Below, one piece after another: positions 7,193 to 40,396 of a stretch of DNA of 44,531 bases. The translations under genes and the position numbers were made by a program. The notes below the pieces were generated by a model. That model was given only the letters and a program-made list of their open reading frames with translations. It searched no databases and had not been told where the DNA came from. The DNA is taken from IMG/VR virus record IMGVR_UViG_3300017613_001587; one strand, written 5' to 3'. Origin of the DNA: a virus. Its lineage: Duplodnaviria; Heunggongvirae; Uroviricota; Caudoviricetes. The stretch's first letter is position 1; each line of letters opens with the position of its first letter.

Positions 7193-8090
7193 GTTTCTTT
7201 ATGAAACTGATATAAAATCTGTGTTAAGGTTCGTTCACAGAGTATTTGTGAGGAAGGCTGAGGATGACAAACGCCCTCGTGATCCTCGGCCTACACTCAT
7301 ACCACACCCTGGCCAACCGGTGGGGTATGTATACAACCCGATACAGTTTGCTCTATTGAGCAAGGACCGCAGAATTATCAACAATCCCACGCATTGTAGA
7401 GACTACATGAATGACGCTATAAGATATCATGTGTCTGGTATGCACTCTGCTCACTGCAACCACCAATGGCCTGGCGAGCTAGACATGCATAAACTACGCA
7501 TGGTCTTCTTCTATGATGTTAGTGAGTGGGAACACATTAATGTGTTTGATGGGATAAAGAATGGCGTGCGTTTGGCAAACATGTATGGGCGTGTGGCTGG
7601 CTGGTCGCCGTTGCGACTGGTGCGTGCTAAAATACCATACGAAAAGAATGACAAGACTTACGAGAAGGAGTGTTATGTTCTTGTAGGAGACAGGAACTGG
7701 CAAAGGACACCACAATATATGTCTATGCTAATACTATTAATTCGTATTTGTATAGTGCATGAAGTACCAAAATGGATAACGGATGCTTATGCCCTGACTG
7801 GATACTGGTATGAGTTTCTGTATAACACCGACACCAAAGATAGGCCTAGTAACTCCGACATAAATACGTTTCTGGCCAATAGTTATGATCACATGCTAGT
7901 GATGATGACACACGACAGGGAAATCTTCCCTGGTAATATGCTCGGCAACTTCAGTAGCAAGTTGGACAACTTTCACAACAAGAGTGGGATCAACTCACTC
8001 ATTAATAAGTCTGGTTGTCATCCCGAGTCGGCTAAGAAACTATCACATTATTATGCAACGGAGGTACTAAAATATGGCAGATCAGACTAA
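7155..8090 (+). CDS. uncharacterised protein, paralog family A
   Basis: CRDYMND, WQRTPQYMSMLILLIRI, FHNKSGINSL; start uncertain. Confidence 0.75.
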   Translation: MKRFARFFLQESKFLYETDIKSVLRFVHRVFVRKAEDDKRPRDPRPTLIPHPGQPVGYVYNPIQFALLSKDRRIINNPTHCRDYMNDAIRYHVSGMHSAHCNHQWPGELDMHKLRMVFFYDVSEWEHINVFDGIKNGVRLANMYGRVAGWSPLRLVRAKIPYEKNDKTYEKECYVLVGDRNWQRTPQYMSMLILLIRICIVHEVPKWITDAYALTGYWYEFLYNTDTKDRPSNSDINTFLANSYDHMLVMMTHDREIFPGNMLGNFSSKLDNFHNKSGINSLINKSGCHPESAKKLSHYYATEVLKYGRSD

Positions 8091-11910: not shown

Positions 11911-12210
11911 ATGTCAGGAATCATCGAAATCTGGAGGAAGGCGGGCGCTGCTATGATGCCCGTTCGTTTTACGGTCGGGAATCCACCGGTACTTGCAGAC
12001 GGTCAAGTTATAGCGAATGGTCCGGTCATTAACAAGATTGACTACCGTGAGACCGGTGCGATAGCTGGCAAGCGTTTGAATCAGCCGGTATTCGTCATCG
12101 AGTTCGAGCAGTCCTTTGTACAGCGGTTCATCCCTGCCGAAGAGGTGATTGACGTGGCCTACGAAACAAAGAAGGCTGATGCCATCACGGTTCCGGCACT
12201 GGAGGAGTAA
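11911..12210 (+). CDS. hypothetical protein
   Basis: Perfect SD TAAGGAGGT; ORF. Confidence 0.8.
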   Translation: MSGIIEIWRKAGAAMMPVRFTVGNPPVLADGQVIANGPVINKIDYRETGAIAGKRLNQPVFVIEFEQSFVQRFIPAEEVIDVAYETKKADAITVPALEE

Positions 12211-12211
12211 G

Positions 12212-12973
12212 ATGTTCTCACAGTTCATCAATCGTGCGGCCAAACGAGTGTTCATCGTTAATGACAACAGGGACTGCGGGGCAGAATATGCTCCGCTGTT
12301 CCGTCAATTCGGTGATATTGTTAGTGATCCCAACATTTTTCAACTACAACCTTTAACTTTTAAGTTGGTGGTATTCACCGGCGGAGCTGATGTATCACCG
12401 AGTATGTATGGAGACACCAGTCCCAAAGGAATATGCCACACCAATCCAGACCGCGACAAGCAAGAGCGAAAGATCTTTGGTTATGCTAGACAGCGCGGTG
12501 TTAGGATGGTAGGCATCTGCCGCGGTATGCAATTCTTAAATGTTATGACCGGCGGCAAGATGATGCATGATTTATCCGGGCATGGCGGCGGCAGTCATAA
12601 AGTCATGACCAAAGACAAGACTAATGCCATGGTCGTCAACAGTTTCCATCATCAAATGAGTATACTAGGTAAGGACTCGTCCCTCCTGGCCTGGTCGAAC
12701 GAACGTCTATCCAAATATTATACCGGTGCAGAGGACGAACATGTAGACTACACCGGCCCCGAAGTGGAAGCGTTTTATCATTCCTGGGACAAATGTCTCG
12801 GCGTTCAATGGCATCCTGAAGTTGCCTTGGCAATGAATGATGATGCCTGCAAAGAATCTACCGAGTGGTTCGTTGACCTCGTCAAAGATCACATGGCAGA
12901 CACCCCTGGTATGTTTAAGAAAGCACACCTGGGCAAGAACGCATCGAAGATTAATGTGAGTGAGGTCAAATGA
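12212..12973 (+). CDS. class I glutamine amidotransferase / peptidase C26-like (second copy)
   Basis: SD GGAGGAG favours start 12212; VVFTGGADVSP, GICRGMQ, NSFHHQ, VQWHPE. Confidence 0.9.
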   Translation: MFSQFINRAAKRVFIVNDNRDCGAEYAPLFRQFGDIVSDPNIFQLQPLTFKLVVFTGGADVSPSMYGDTSPKGICHTNPDRDKQERKIFGYARQRGVRMVGICRGMQFLNVMTGGKMMHDLSGHGGGSHKVMTKDKTNAMVVNSFHHQMSILGKDSSLLAWSNERLSKYYTGAEDEHVDYTGPEVEAFYHSWDKCLGVQWHPEVALAMNDDACKESTEWFVDLVKDHMADTPGMFKKAHLGKNASKINVSEVK

Positions 12974-13458
12974 ATAAGTATTTATACGACGAAGTGTATA
13001 TTGTTGGTGTTGACCATGCGATATCGTCTGGTGGAGAACTCAAGGTATGTGGTTCGTTTGAATCGTTGCTTGAGTATCTAAAAACCAAGAGCGTCAGCAT
13101 TAACCCTGGCCTTCGCGTTGTTCACGGTGTCTTGACCTCTGCGAAATCAATTCCAAAAGATTTTAAGACACGTCAGCCTTTCATTATACTCACAGATCCA
13201 ACCGATCCCACCTACGGTATCCTGCTCGACTCAGATACTGAAGACGACTGTACTGAGTTAGCCTCGGAAATTGAGAGGGTACTGGAGAGTGAGGAAGCTG
13301 CAAGTTTCTTCTTCGAGATTGACCATGTCTTTATACTATATGGATATGAACTTGGCCTAACATTGTCAGTGGATGAGGATGATATTGACGAAGAGATCAT
13401 CTCCGACTGTTTAGAAGTCGCAGACACGGCAAGAGAATTAATAGGAGAGGATGATTAG
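12970..13458 (+). CDS. acidic hypothetical protein
   Basis: ATGA coupling; ORF. Confidence 0.7.
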   Translation: MNKYLYDEVYIVGVDHAISSGGELKVCGSFESLLEYLKTKSVSINPGLRVVHGVLTSAKSIPKDFKTRQPFIILTDPTDPTYGILLDSDTEDDCTELASEIERVLESEEAASFFFEIDHVFILYGYELGLTLSVDEDDIDEEIISDCLEVADTARELIGEDD

Positions 13459-35198: not shown

Positions 35199-35394
35199 AC
35201 AACGGCACAGATTCCACTGCAAAGCTCTTATAGGACAACCTAACGGTACACTCTGCAGTCCTGATAATTGTGCAGCCATACACATGGCAGACCTGATGGT
35301 AAATGAGTTAAGAGCAGAGATTTATGATATGTTAGGAGGCGGAAATGAAAACGCTGGAGGCACTGAGGCTGTTGCAGGACAACACAAAGGCTGA
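35149..35394 (+). CDS. small Cys/His-containing protein
   Basis: Strong SD GGAGGAGG; C…C…C…C pattern. Confidence 0.65.
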   Translation: MALTTEQLALGCPNRVKQRHRFHCKALIGQPNGTLCSPDNCAAIHMADLMVNELRAEIYDMLGGGNENAGGTEAVAGQHKG

Positions 35395-36727
35395 AGTGTT
35401 CCTAGTTGGTGGATTTGTCAGGGATTACCTGCGCAACAAAAAGAACGATGACTTGGACATAGTTGTTCGGAAGGTGTCATCAAAAGCAATTATTGCTTAC
35501 TTAAAGAAGCACGGTTCGTGTAAGAGAATCACACTTGCCGTCAACAGCGACTCTTTTGAGACCGAGCTGATCTTATTCAGAGGTAGTGATGATACTACCA
35601 TAGCTCAGTTGGTCTTACCGCGCAGAGGCAAACGACAAATTGCCGATAGGAACAACACACTTAGGCAAGACGCTAAGTACAGGGATTTTAAAATAAACGC
35701 AATGTATCTGCCGATTAATTTTCGTTCTAAGGCAGATGTGATTGATGTGATTGGTGGTCTAGCTGACATCAAGAGTCGCACCATAGCATGTGTGTCCGGT
35801 GCTGACGATTGTTTATCCATGTCCCCTATCAGGGTACTACGAGCAGTATCACTGTCTGCTCGCACTGGATACAAGCTAGACGCTGATCTCTTCGCTGGGA
35901 TGAGAAAATACAGCGATAGTATAAAGGATGTTATCCCTGAGGGTATTCGCAGGGAGTTAAATAAGATCCTTTTGAGCAAGAAACCATCGAAATCCCTTAA
36001 ACTTATGCAGAAGCTAGGGCTATTGAAACATACCATGCCTGAGCTCAATGACTGCGTAGGGGTAACCCAAGACACAAGATATCATAAGTACGATGTCTTT
36101 GTACATTGCATCTATACTTGTGATAACACTGAGGAGAATCTTGTACTCCGTCTTGCTGGATTACTTCATGATATAGGAAAAGCTGGCACAAGAAAGAGGG
36201 TCGGTAAGAGAGTGACGTTCCACAAGCACGAGATGCTGAGCGTCAAGCTTGCGCGGGACTTCTTGAACCGGTTGAGATACGATAGTAAAACCAAGACCGA
36301 GGTGCTGGGCCTGATCAGAATGCATATGTACCACTACACCCGTGAGTACGGAGACGGGGCGGTTAGGCGGTTCATACGTAAACAGCACATCACCGAAGAT
36401 ATGGTTGGTACCATCGGTGATCTACCCCTCTTTAAACTGAGGATAGCTGAAAGATTAGGTAATGGGTTAAAAACTGATCCGGTGACCCAAAGACAGTTGG
36501 ACTTCGAAGACCGGATAAGAAAGGTAGTCAGTAAGGGTGGCGGGTTGAGGTTAAAAGACCTTGATATTGATGGCCACATCATCAAGGAAGCTTTCTCTCT
36601 TAAAAACGGAGAGATGATTGGTGAAATCCTGAACTATCTGTTGGACAGAGTCCAGCGCGATAAGCAACTAAACGATCGGATGCAATTGATCGAGTTAACA
36701 TTACAGTATCTCCGAAGCAAAAGCTAA
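35345..36727 (+). CDS. cca: class II tRNA nucleotidyltransferase (CCA-adding enzyme-like) with HD domain
   Basis: LVGGFVRD…DDLDIVV, RDFKINAM, PIRVLRA, GIRRELNKIL, LHDIGK. Confidence 0.92.
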   Translation: MKTLEALRLLQDNTKAEVFLVGGFVRDYLRNKKNDDLDIVVRKVSSKAIIAYLKKHGSCKRITLAVNSDSFETELILFRGSDDTTIAQLVLPRRGKRQIADRNNTLRQDAKYRDFKINAMYLPINFRSKADVIDVIGGLADIKSRTIACVSGADDCLSMSPIRVLRAVSLSARTGYKLDADLFAGMRKYSDSIKDVIPEGIRRELNKILLSKKPSKSLKLMQKLGLLKHTMPELNDCVGVTQDTRYHKYDVFVHCIYTCDNTEENLVLRLAGLLHDIGKAGTRKRVGKRVTFHKHEMLSVKLARDFLNRLRYDSKTKTEVLGLIRMHMYHYTREYGDGAVRRFIRKQHITEDMVGTIGDLPLFKLRIAERLGNGLKTDPVTQRQLDFEDRIRKVVSKGGGLRLKDLDIDGHIIKEAFSLKNGEMIGEILNYLLDRVQRDKQLNDRMQLIELTLQYLRSKS

Positions 36728-36739
36728 CCGAGATACGAA

Positions 36740-37430
36740 AAGTCGGTAGACAAACATAGCTCTACCGACAAAAGGGACGCAGTGATTGTGAGCCTGCGCA
36801 CCGAGCGGAAGCTCTCGTGACCTCAGCGATAACGTTGGGTAATTGCGGTATGAGGATCTACATACGCTACCTTAAATGCGGTACCGTTCCTGGGTCAATC
36901 GTACCTATAAAGCCAAATCAAACAACCGGTTCGGTCAGGGTTACCATCTTCGGCTAAATAAACCAAGTGTATTTTTCTTATAAGTTCGATCAGTTCTGAA
37001 AGCAGTCTTTGTATACACACAATGCTAAGGAACGTTAAATTTCGCTTAGGAAAATATGGTTGGTACTGAACCGCGTACCTAACGCGGTGTTCTCTTCGCC
37101 CTTTGTGATCAGTCAAGAGGAAAGGTATGACAAAGGAAGCACCAAAGTCCTGAGAGACTACTCCAGGCAGCTTCTGGGCGCCAAAGTACTGCAGCTGATA
37201 CAAAGGTAACAATACGTCGTGGGATGTCGTTCCTGTTGCCAGCAAGCTAGGTAATTACAAAGTAATGTCCTGAGGAGGATACTGAAATGATTTACCTAGG
37301 GACTCCAAATCCCAATAGGAAGACTTAGTTCAATACATAGGCGAGCCTCTGTCAGAGGACGCAAGTTCAACTATGATGTCTTGCTCATAGCGCGTTCTAC
37401 ACACTTGCCAACGACAAGCAAGAGTATTGA
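36740..37430 (+). ncRNA. ORF-poor, hairpin-dense region; putative large structured RNA of unknown class
   Basis: Stems such as 36742-50/36761-69, 37071-76/37082-87, 37100-06/37130-36, 37205-11/37234-40, 37247-54/37292-99, 37379-85/37417-23; strand assumed. Confidence 0.5.
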
Positions 37431-37445
37431 GATGTTAATTTATTA

Positions 37446-37789
37446 AGTGATATAGCATAGGCCAGGTTACTAATGCGCCTGCTACCCAAAAAGCGCTCGG
37501 TCCCAAGAGCGTCAGCTGTTTATATGAGACCCTACCAGGGTACACCCTGGATACTATTCTCTAAGTTCGGCTGTCATAACAAACTTCTATAACTTATGGC
37601 GACGATATAGCCATCGAGGGTTTTTGCAAGTGGCATCATCAGCTGATACTTTAGCCCTCATGAATCTAAAGTAAAACTTGCCGAGCTACTGCACGTAGTC
37701 AGCTATATGTCGTAGTGCTCGTAGTGCAAAGCTGACATTGGGAAATAGCGGGAGAAGGTTCTTCGCAGTTCGAATCTGCCCTATCACTG
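37446..37789 (+). ncRNA. tRNA-shaped RNA with ~250-nt pseudoknotted insert in the anticodon loop (tmRNA-like architecture or intron-containing tRNA)
   Basis: Acceptor AGTGATA/TATCACT, D stem GCAT/ATGC, anticodon stem CCTGCTA/TAGCGGG, variable hairpin, T arm GCAG-TTCGAAT-CTGC. Confidence 0.75.
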
Positions 37790-37799
37790 AGTAAATAAA

Positions 37800-38400
37800 G
37801 CATGAGTCGTGATGTTCCACGCACAAAAGCGTGAGCTTAAAGTTTCGTGTAATCCATGCACGGAAGTTGTACCCGATGACCAGTGGTCATCAATTAACAC
37901 CTCCTTAACGGCCTACCCTGTGGTGGGGGTAGGCCACAACGCTTGTAGTACTGGATAGTTTTTAGACTGAAACGTGAGCTGATAAAGACGTTTCCTTAAT
38001 TTGCATAGGCCGGTTCCGCAGACTGTGAGCCTACGCTGGAAAGGTAGTTTTGATGCCATGACACATAAAACTAAGAACTGTCTGTTCTATCCTTAAGTTA
38101 GATAAAGTTCTGAGCGTACCGGACCAGCTTATAGTACCCCGAAACAAAGTACCCTATCGCAGGGGAAACGGAATAGGGGGAAGGAAGCATACTCCTACGT
38201 GGCTCAACCAACCTTATCTAATGGGTAGACACAGGTATCGCGTGGGATGAGGGTGGGTAAATTTGAATATATTCTTCTTGAAGGAAGAATTGATGATATA
38301 AAGGTGGGTTCCTAGACCTACGGAGGAAGTGGCAAACGTCTAGCGGTCCAACATAGCCGCTAGTGCGCCTCCTAATTTTATGTTACCTCCTTATCAAGCT
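37800..38400 (+). ncRNA. structured non-coding region with group II intron domain II/III-like segment
   Basis: Stems 37910-18/37927-35, 37969-75/37988-94, 38340-46/38357-63; GGA linker + GCTT-ATAGTA…GAAGG-AAGC at 38121-38188. Confidence 0.4.
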
Positions 38401-38640
38401 GGTTGAACTGGTCATTCAGCCAGCACAAGCTTAATTGCTACCAATCGTGGGTTCCCACTGAGCGGCAGACTATGGGAACATCTGGCCCAGCATTCGTGGA
38501 GTCCTCCCAGCTGGGGAATAACTGAGGACCTAGGTCGCTCACAACGTGCTCGATAGTTCAAGAAAAATACCTGCTCCGGGAGATGGCCACCCGTACCGCA
38601 GGAGTTGTAGCACGGTGTTCTAACCACCGTAGCTGCTCGA

Positions 38641-38687
38641 GCACACAAGCTTGGTCCAGTGGGCCAAGTGAGTTGGTGTTTTTTTTT
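38641..38687 (+). terminator. intrinsic terminator
   Basis: Hairpin core CTTGGTCC-agt-GGGCCAAG, extendable to 38678, followed by a T9 tract. Confidence 0.65.
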
Positions 38688-38892
38688 ATTTTTTATTCTC
38701 CTTTCATTTATTTGTTTCTGGTTCACGGCTAGCTGGTCAAGTTTCCTCCTTTTTTCTTGGCCAGCACAAGGGTGTACTCACCCCCTATCGCACTAGCGAA
38801 ACTCCGGTCTTTCAGGACATGAGCCTGAACGGTCTTGGGGGTGGCCGACAAGGGGTGCACCTGAAAATTTTTTATATACGGGATGGTCTGCT

Positions 38893-39108
38893 ATGGCATT
38901 AGTTGTATGTAATAAAGCAAGTCACTGTATTGAACGTGGCTGTCCGTGGCATGAACCTAGACAGGAGGTAGAGCTAGGTAGTGCTCATTGTAATAAGTGG
39001 GAGCACCAGACTGGACTAAGTGGCCACAACATTACGATCGTAGCCGCGTCGACACTCGATAACTCCGACCCTAACTTAATATTTGCAAGGAAGAAACATG
39101 GATTTTGA
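38893..39108 (+). CDS. small Cys/His-containing protein
   Basis: ORF; C..C..C.WH..C. Confidence 0.6.
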   Translation: MALVVCNKASHCIERGCPWHEPRQEVELGSAHCNKWEHQTGLSGHNITIVAASTLDNSDPNLIFARKKHGF

Positions 39109-40288: not shown

Positions 40289-40361
40289 GATCCTGTAGCT
40301 CAGTGGTTAGAGTGCCCGCCTATAAGGCGGGAGGTCCCTCGTTCGAGTCGAGGCAGGCCCT
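40289..40361 (+). tRNA. atypical/pseudo tRNA, Ile-like body, nominal anticodon ATA
   Basis: D arm GCTC/GAGT, anticodon arm CCCGC-CT ATA AG-GCGGG, T arm CCTCG-TTCGAGT-CGAGG; two acceptor mismatches; no CCA. Confidence 0.7.
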
Positions 40362-40396
40362 CAGTGATAAACGATCCCTGTGTATTCAAAGTCCTT

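Follow-up and report, generated by a model that had tools for sequence, protein, structure and literature searches.

The current study asks what kind of RNA is encoded at positions 37446-37789 (+ strand, 344 nt) of a 44,531-nt phage sequence, IMG/VR record IMGVR_UViG_3300017613_001587, which we refer to throughout as the window, meaning the whole stretch of DNA examined. The candidate sits within a 2.1-kb stretch free of open reading frames (ORFs; 36727-38893), directly after the gene of a CCA-adding enzyme. A preliminary description made from the letters alone had read it as a tRNA-shaped RNA with a long pseudoknotted insert in place of the anticodon loop, possibly a transfer-messenger RNA (tmRNA)-like molecule of an undescribed class. 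We find that the two ends of 37446-37789 rebuild a faithful tRNA upper body and that the anticodon stem-loop has given way to an 8-bp helix bearing a ~250-nt module of three pseudoknotted domains. The reading we favor, with moderate confidence, is that of a non-decoding, tRNA-scaffolded stable RNA, in which maturation, CCA addition, and stability would depend upon the shell and the conserved knot would do the actual work. Its carriers are a lineage of uncultured marine-sediment phages.

Relatives of the window were gathered with an invariant core word of the RNA, which returned five metagenome contigs, and through homologues of the CCA-adding enzyme, ~900 of which scored E<=1e-30 and some of which led to further contigs. 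A profile search recovered 11 homologues of the RNA in related phage contigs, giving 12 members with the window copy (loci L003/L004, L005, L006, L007, L008, L010, L011/L012, L013, L156, L157 and, more distantly, L158). Wherever a locus contains the enzyme gene, the RNA follows it at a distance of 0.37-0.87 kb, and this linkage is maintained across 48-83% protein identity, L001 included. The latter contig (IMGVR_UViG_3300035037_000204; 48% enzyme identity) encodes a 175-nt member at 7550-7724, located 206 nt after the gene, which has the same tRNA shell with only ~95 nt of insert and is surrounded by flanks lacking detectable similarity to those of the other members. Every shell helix and most insert helices covary among the homologues. 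When helices were fitted to displaced windows as a decoy control, 129 of the 151 real helices were fully paired compared with 156 of 849 decoys, a comparison that is noisy for helices of 4-5 bp.

In these comparisons, selection is seen to act on the tRNA-shaped shell. The shell elements named in the preliminary description were reproduced, including the 7/7 acceptor, the D stem, the anticodon-position stem, the AAA bulge, and the 4-bp T arm followed by CC (Table 1), and the tRNA shape could not be put down to chance, with covariation in the 12 members supporting its acceptor, D, anticodon-position, and T helices. Both-side changes occur in the acceptor at pairs 4:69 and 7:66. The D stem is paired 4/4 in all 11 homologues and exists in four versions (GCAU/AUGC, GUAU/AUAC, ACAU/AUGU, and GCAC/GUGC), while the anticodon-position stem is paired 7/7 in 10 of the 11 with nine different sequences. 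In relatives the latter stem reaches 8 bp, and all eight pairs covary, with up to 4 sequences per pair. Just beyond it, the CCC/GGG pairing is retained in 11 of 12 members next to a 3' bulge of 3-5 nt, L158 having a continuous helix instead. The T loop is invariant save for one G>A change and the T stem covaries. The core nucleotides U8 (37453), A14, R15, GG, A21, and the TTCGAAT loop are likewise retained across members, and A9 follows U8 in the window copy. Across the + strand of the whole window, only four stems close a TTCRANN loop, namely those of three ordinary tRNAs and that of the RNA at 37446-37789.

Other properties of the shell depart from those of a tRNA that decodes. The T stem is 6 bp long in 10 of 12 members, which yields a 7+6 acceptor/T stack of 13 layers rather than the 12 (7+5) of a decoding tRNA, and an extra nucleotide precedes the 3' acceptor strand in all members. 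Thirteen layers is also the stack length of tRNA-Sec; neither a UCA anticodon nor a Sec-type D arm was found in the RNA. The acceptor, D, and T arms are present along with the core tertiary nucleotides, whereas the 5-bp anticodon stem and 7-nt U33 loop are missing, and in their place the covarying 8-bp stem leads into the insert. If the conserved CCCNARAA is read as an anticodon loop, it has C at position 33 and would present CAA, CCA, or CGA depending upon the member. The 13-layer stack, the variability of the identity elements, and the missing anticodon argue against a role as a translation substrate. The earlier view of a tRNA mimic, as opposed to a decoding tRNA, is supported. The long variable arm, previously taken together with other positions as a sign of serine identity, exists in the window copy and in L157; the other 10 members have only 3-6 nt there, and serine identity accordingly finds no support as a trait of the family. 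ARAGORN with introns allowed does call exactly 37446-37789, although only at a relaxed threshold of 90% and with an implausible fold; at this threshold it misses 9 of the 11 homologues, and at the default and 95% thresholds it fails on all 11.

Table 1. Coordinates of the candidate RNA, its parts, and the adjoining enzyme gene in the window.
Feature	Position	Strand	Remarks
Class II CCA-adding enzyme gene	35345-36727	+	Pfam: PolyA_pol head, RNA-binding, and HD domains
Leader / trailer	~37424-37445 / ~37790-37811	+	Can pair, extending the acceptor helix
Acceptor, 5' strand	37446-37452	+	AGTGATA pairs with TATCACT 37782-37788; 7/7 here, 6-7/7 in 11 homologues
D arm	37455-37476	+	Stem 37455-58/37473-76, GCAT/ATGC; 14-nt loop with GG
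Anticodon-position stem, 5' strand	37478-37484	+	CCTGCTA pairs with TAGCGGG 37746-37752; 7 bp
CCC and A-rich junction strand	37485-37492	+	CCC pairs with GGG 37740-42; 3' AAA bulge 37743-45
Hairpin A	37493-37512	+	C-rich loop; 6/6 paired in 9/11 homologues, 8 different stem sequences
Domain 1	37513-37586	+	Helices F, C, and D plus hairpin B 37535-50
Hairpin E	37598-37612	+	GGC/GCC, 9-nt loop; invariant where present
Domain 2	37616-37681	+	Near-invariant core; helices G, H, and I
Domain 3	37682-37736	+	Helices L, K, and J
Variable arm	37753-37764	+	GAAG-GTT-CTTC; lineage-specific
T arm	37765-37779	+	GCAG-TTCGAAT-CTGC; 4-bp stem, then two unpaired C
Acceptor, 3' strand and discriminator G	37782-37789	+	CCA not encoded

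The insert proved to be more thoroughly paired than the sequence of the window alone had suggested. In domain 1, helix F (37513-17/37569-73) encloses helix C (37526-29/37558-61) together with hairpin B, and helix D (37563-67/37582-86) crosses helix F to form a pseudoknot. Strands of these three helices lie within 37551-95, which had been regarded as an open, AU-rich stretch. Hairpin B itself was confirmed, while the first pseudoknot proposed for the insert survives only in its hairpin (hairpin A), since the GGTC/GACC loop pairing added to it is not conserved and clashes with a covarying helix. Within domain 1, 94.3% of the alignment cells are paired and 10 of 18 pairs exhibit changes on both sides, values reached by 0 of 500 shuffles; in slid controls, 26-60% was obtained. 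Hairpin E had been drawn as ATGGC/GCCAT; its GGC/GCC part is kept and the rest is not, and it is dispensable, being removed by a 20-nt deletion in L156 and L010.

Domain 2, the best-conserved segment of the insert, is built from helix G (37616-20/37655-59), which crosses both helix I (37626-31/37676-81) and helix H (37649-54/37666-71). Here, the earlier pairings GAGGG/CCCTC and CTTTAG/CTAAAG were both borne out, and helix I is a further, enclosing helix. The proportion of paired cells is 94%, with both-side changes in 4 of 17 pairs, and only 0-1 of 500 shuffles reach that level. Compensatory versions, which come from L010, L157, L158, and L008, are found for two of the helices (GAGGG/CCCUC, GAUGG/CCAUC, and GCUGG/CCAGC; GCAAGU/ACUUGC, ACAAGU/ACUUGU, and GCAGGU/ACCUGU), and the third helix, CUUUAG/CUAAAG, is also crossed by GAGGG/CCCUC. 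In L011, 29 nt of this domain are missing. For domain 3, the topology of the last pseudoknot was correct as first drawn and its register was not: helix L (37682-86/37717-21) is followed by helix K (37688-92/37712-16), and helix J (37698-702/37732-36) crosses helix K. Helix K is paired 5/5 in 11 of 12 members with a sequence that differs in nearly every one, and helix J is paired 5/5 in all 12 in 5 versions. Judging from these patterns of substitution, the insert is selected as an RNA structure, and because its helices hold G:U pairs, the RNA can be placed on the + strand.

Contigs assembled from public runs provide a second view of the insert. The segment 37511-37731 is near-identical across several sediment metagenomes and metatranscriptomes, and its flanks diverge. 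The insert is present in contigs of three metatranscriptome runs from two studies. Coverage by these RNA-library contigs extends over 37511-37731, and as far as 37790 in one run (X8), in which the insert is joined to the 3' tRNA half.

In line with the earlier suspicion that the RNA might be undescribed, neither an Rfam family nor a paper describing it was found in our database and literature searches. At gathering thresholds, Rfam reported only three tRNAs in the whole window, and it returned nothing at E<=10 in either 37200-38000 or 36650-39000. A blastn search against 50,697 phage records and a search for the exact core word of the RNA in IMG/VR were both without a match. Loose patterns of the shell retrieved 21 stretches from IMG/VR and more than 120 from GTDB genomes, none of which fit the family profile beyond chance. 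A comparison with other scanned genomes likewise turned up nothing resembling the RNA in sequence. The topologies of RNase P RNA, group II domain V, the hammerhead, and hepatitis delta virus-like ribozymes were compared with the RNA by eye and rejected as none fitted, in agreement with Rfam.

Based upon these features, a pathway can be proposed for the non-decoding, tRNA-scaffolded RNA that we favor. The RNA would be transcribed within the ~2-kb ORF-free region after the CCA-adding enzyme gene and excised from a precursor, perhaps first within a leader-trailer duplex. Maturation would then follow that of tRNA, with RNase P acting at A37446 and 3' trimming proceeding to G37789, after which CCA would be added by the phage enzyme encoded just upstream. 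The resulting L-shaped shell would shield the RNA from nucleases, as artificial tRNA scaffolds do, and the near-invariant knot, especially 37587-37681, would bind some protein, RNA, or small ligand. The duplexes between leader and trailer (RNAduplex) are a weak finding, occurring in most homologues as 12-15 bp of differing sequence; 6 of 12 members score no higher than the 7th percentile of shuffles, with the 15 bp of L157 reaching -16.7 kcal/mol. They may represent a processing stem.

Several points weigh against this proposal. The Logan RNA-library contigs can neither prove transcription nor show ends. One such contig (X16 record 15) runs from upstream sequence into the insert, and therefore an unprocessed form, or DNA, must be present. 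Pairing between leader and trailer would hinder RNase P, and it equally fits an internal domain of a larger RNA. No single sub-element of the insert is indispensable, as parts of the presumed core are deleted in L010, L156, and L011.

Three rival explanations have to be set against this evidence. The unit could be a four-way-junction domain lying within a far larger structured RNA, with conserved blocks at ~37066-38800, from which it is never released, the "acceptor" being simply part of one helix extended by leader and trailer. This would account for the conservation of the entire ORF-free 2.1-kb region in blocks, the covarying hairpins in its flanks, the complementarity of leader and trailer in most homologues, and the RNA-library contig that spans the 5' boundary. 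We nonetheless regard it as somewhat unlikely, given that all members keep a 7-bp acceptor, an unpaired discriminator, and a full tRNA core, which are the requirements of tRNA-processing enzymes, and that the distant L001 member retains the shell amid flanks of no detectable similarity. Moreover, RNAs that are excised from their precursors, for instance rRNA and scRNA, typically have leader-trailer stems as well. A true tRNA gene interrupted by a large, unrecognized intron, which would be removed by self-splicing or by an endonuclease followed by RtcB ligase joining, is quite unlikely. The insertion does occupy the usual place of tRNA introns, 11 of 12 members have GGG ahead of the 3' junction, and L001 has Rfam-detected group I introns at two places adjoining tRNA halves. 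Indeed, in group I-containing tRNA genes of the same phage clade, such as the apparent tRNA-Leu(UAA) gene of L001, structured RNAs of 200-330 nt interrupt the anticodon region. These differ from the RNA studied here, which has no group I core, carries the covarying 8-bp stem, and does not allow a mature anticodon loop to be drawn consistently. Rfam's model for group I introns (RF00028) gives no match to it at E<=10 and scores the two L001 introns at 50-51 bits. Domain 1 does have a P3/P7-like topology, the only such pseudoknot in the RNA, and there is no P6 or P8. Its P7-like helix (helix D) lacks the invariant G-C, the central pair being GC in 8 members, GU in 2, and UA in 1, and three of its other pairs show both-side changes. 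Immediately ahead of the junction, 9 members have U, whereas the window and L157 have A, and this nucleotide covaries with the 3' strand. An archaeal- or eukaryal-type 3-4-3 bulge-helix-bulge is likewise not seen, as the helix ranges over 3-5 bp, the bulge over 3-5 nt, and L158 lacks the two of them. No cut leaves every member with a 5-bp stem and a 7-nt U33 loop; the leftover loop CCCNARA has C33, and its anticodons would differ among members sharing one shell. The intron mode of ARAGORN fails, as described above, and no RNA-library contig joins the two halves across the insert, although this is weak evidence, since neither the absence of such a joint nor the uncovered parts are informative.

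The tmRNA-like reading, in which the RNA would rescue ribosomes or re-tag proteins while charged with an amino acid other than alanine, was proposed in the preliminary description and now seems extremely improbable. Like tmRNA (ssrA), the RNA combines a tRNA-like domain, a long connecting helix, and several serial pseudoknots at a similar size (~350 nt), with a CCA that is not encoded at its 3' end and a CCA-adding enzyme gene adjoining it. What is lacking is a conserved reading frame. The proposed coding stretch is base-paired and covarying, and the frame ending in SKFGCHNKLL*, which does exist in the window, is not conserved among homologues, having a stop in L005, a read-through in L006, and non-triplet indels. 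Another candidate frame after domain 1 (AUG GCG ACG AUA UAG) falls within the hairpin that is deleted in L156 and L010. In addition, the G3:U70 of tmRNA never occurs, 10 of 11 members having U:A at pair 3:70 and L158 having U:G; the D stem, absent from tmRNA, has its full 4 bp in all members and four covarying versions; and the variable arm is inconsistent between members. The exit of the insert at the anticodon site would presumably cause a clash upon entry into the A site. No standard tmRNA was recognized by Rfam or by ARAGORN, even at a relaxed threshold, just as no known intron family was.

The group I introns of L001 also warrant description in their own right. They are located at 11976-12281 and 12907-13086. 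The first interrupts an apparent tRNA-Leu(UAA) gene, identified by eye, whose halves are at ~11951-11986 and ~12313-12363; a T-arm hairpin at 13121-13137 follows shortly after the second. A segment of L001 at 12220-12241, inside the P8 region of the tRNA-Leu intron, is identical at 21 of 22 nt to window positions 37763-37784, which comprise the T arm and the start of the acceptor strand. This match may be due to chance, reflect a T-loop module, or be a trace of recombination.

When compared with known systems, the RNA joins the tRNA mimics that do not decode, and stands out by the size and intricacy of its cargo. To our knowledge, such tRNA look-alikes are few, being limited to tmRNA, the Y RNAs, and the T4 species 1 and 2 RNAs. 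The last of these (rnaC and rnaD) are likewise small stable phage RNAs encoded beside tRNA genes, in the T4 tRNA cluster, and the end of rnaC consists of a canonical T arm (CCGGG-TTCGAAT-CCCGG) and then an acceptor-like strand. They are only 119-139 nt long compared with 344 nt here, and both their chassis and genomic context differ. We know of no triple-pseudoknot insert in the T4 RNAs and of no function assigned to them; the T4 record annotates them only as small stable RNAs, and a search of the rnaC/rnaD region with our RNA family profile found nothing. Along with the T4 RNAs, the closest published parallel is the Y RNA-like YrlA of bacteria and phages, a non-decoding RNA with a tRNA-like D arm, T arm, and acceptor plus a second functional module, which in M. 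smegmatis is cut by RNase P and receives CCA and in Salmonella is encoded with RtcB (PMC4201824). Like the RNA at 37446-37789, YrlA joins tRNA-like arms to a separate module without decoding. It differs in being circularly permuted, as it ends in the Ro60-binding stem and has a loop-capped acceptor, whereas here the two ends pair to form the acceptor, and the insert closes off the site that the Ro-binding stem would take. YrlA is also much shorter (~100 nt), and the RNA here has no Rfam match.

Rfam includes motifs for the skipping-rope, DUF2693-FD, and salivarius-1 RNAs, and none of its families matched the RNA described here. These three have been treated as bacterial tRNA-mimic families in a 2026 preprint. 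A 2023 catalogue of 10,006 viral RNA candidates includes tRNA-like ones only as overlaps with ARAGORN tRNA calls, and the word "anticodon" is absent from its main text. An artificial system shares the architecture. In the engineered "tRNA scaffold" chimeras of Ponchon and Dardel, a cargo RNA reportedly replaces the anticodon arm, and the cell is said to process and stabilize the chimera; the phage RNA would be the natural counterpart. The RNA shows a phage lineage employing a faithful tRNA body as the carrier of an RNA module that is very large, rich in pseudoknots, and strongly conserved. Genetic linkage ties the RNA to the enzyme by which its 3' end would be completed. Should its ends and CCA tail be confirmed, this would constitute a natural version of biotechnology's tRNA-scaffold trick, as well as a well-defined ~345-nt target for structural work that comes with a covariation-backed map of its secondary structure. 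In any case, these phages contain a conserved, ORF-free RNA locus of ~2 kb that gene callers have left blank.

With regard to this locus, all three stop codons are abundant in all six frames of 36727-38893, and no frame is open under any stop reassignment. Recoding consequently does not explain the ORF gap, and stop-codon reassignment was ruled out. The region is conserved blockwise in the relatives (37066-37140, 37186-37325, 37426-37945, 38086-38260, 38326-38545, and 38706-38800), and the blocks flanking the RNA contain many covarying hairpins with no Rfam match. From its pattern of conservation, 36727-38893 looks like a locus of several undescribed structured RNAs. A call of "tRNA-Pyl(CUA)" at 38587-38676, made by ARAGORN only at a relaxed threshold, is probably spurious, as it falls in the least conserved part of the region (identity 0.01-0.14). 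The three ordinary tRNAs of the window, at 1357, 40289, and 42370, were found by both default ARAGORN and Rfam. Among them, the tRNA-Tyr call at 40289-40362 has an unusual AUA anticodon according to ARAGORN, a score of 50.3 bits with the Rfam tRNA model, and mismatches at the base of its acceptor.

The presence of the CCA-adding enzyme gene upstream of the RNA was confirmed by Pfam, and the other proteins of the window are phage-like, including RuvB-like, ATP-grasp, and OmpA-domain proteins. The class II type of the CCA-adding enzyme and the OmpA-domain protein suggest, as far as gene content can tell, a bacterial host. NCBI lists one homologue of the enzyme (P0078, 55% identity) with a Candidatus Asgardarchaeum metagenome-assembled genome; since the same two features point to bacteria, this filing appears to be a binning artefact.

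Two copies of (C)ACCUCCUU, which we take to be the 3' end of 16S rRNA (the anti-Shine-Dalgarno sequence), are located on the + strand at 37897-37906 and 38383-38392, between covarying hairpins. Both are nearly invariant among 8 aligned homologues, and no further occurrence of ACCTCCTT exists on the + strand of the window. A small ORF on the minus strand behind AAGGAGGT at 37899 was considered and rejected due to indels of 8 and 13 nt between homologues; the hairpin at that site contains G:U pairs on the + strand.

A further interpretation, which we consider unlikely, is that the phage locus mimics the translation apparatus, or that the knot itself acts as a novel ribozyme or ligand sensor, with a natural tRNA body as its scaffold. 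In such a locus, a CCA-tailed tRNA body with its knot would stand beside single-stranded copies of the 16S 3' end (CACCUCCUU, at the two positions given above). Together with the CCA-adding and RNA-ligase enzymes of the phage, these would counter host defences that cut or modify the ends of tRNA and rRNA. Alternatively, the mimicry would serve to capture a host translation factor.

Finally, a G-run motif, GYGTGGGWAGGNGGNGGGAAA, occurs at 38240-38262 of the window and at ~6748-6770 of L014 and ~7908-7928 of L001. It persists in the most distant relatives (48-56% CCA-enzyme identity), and the spacing of its runs would fit a possible G-quadruplex.

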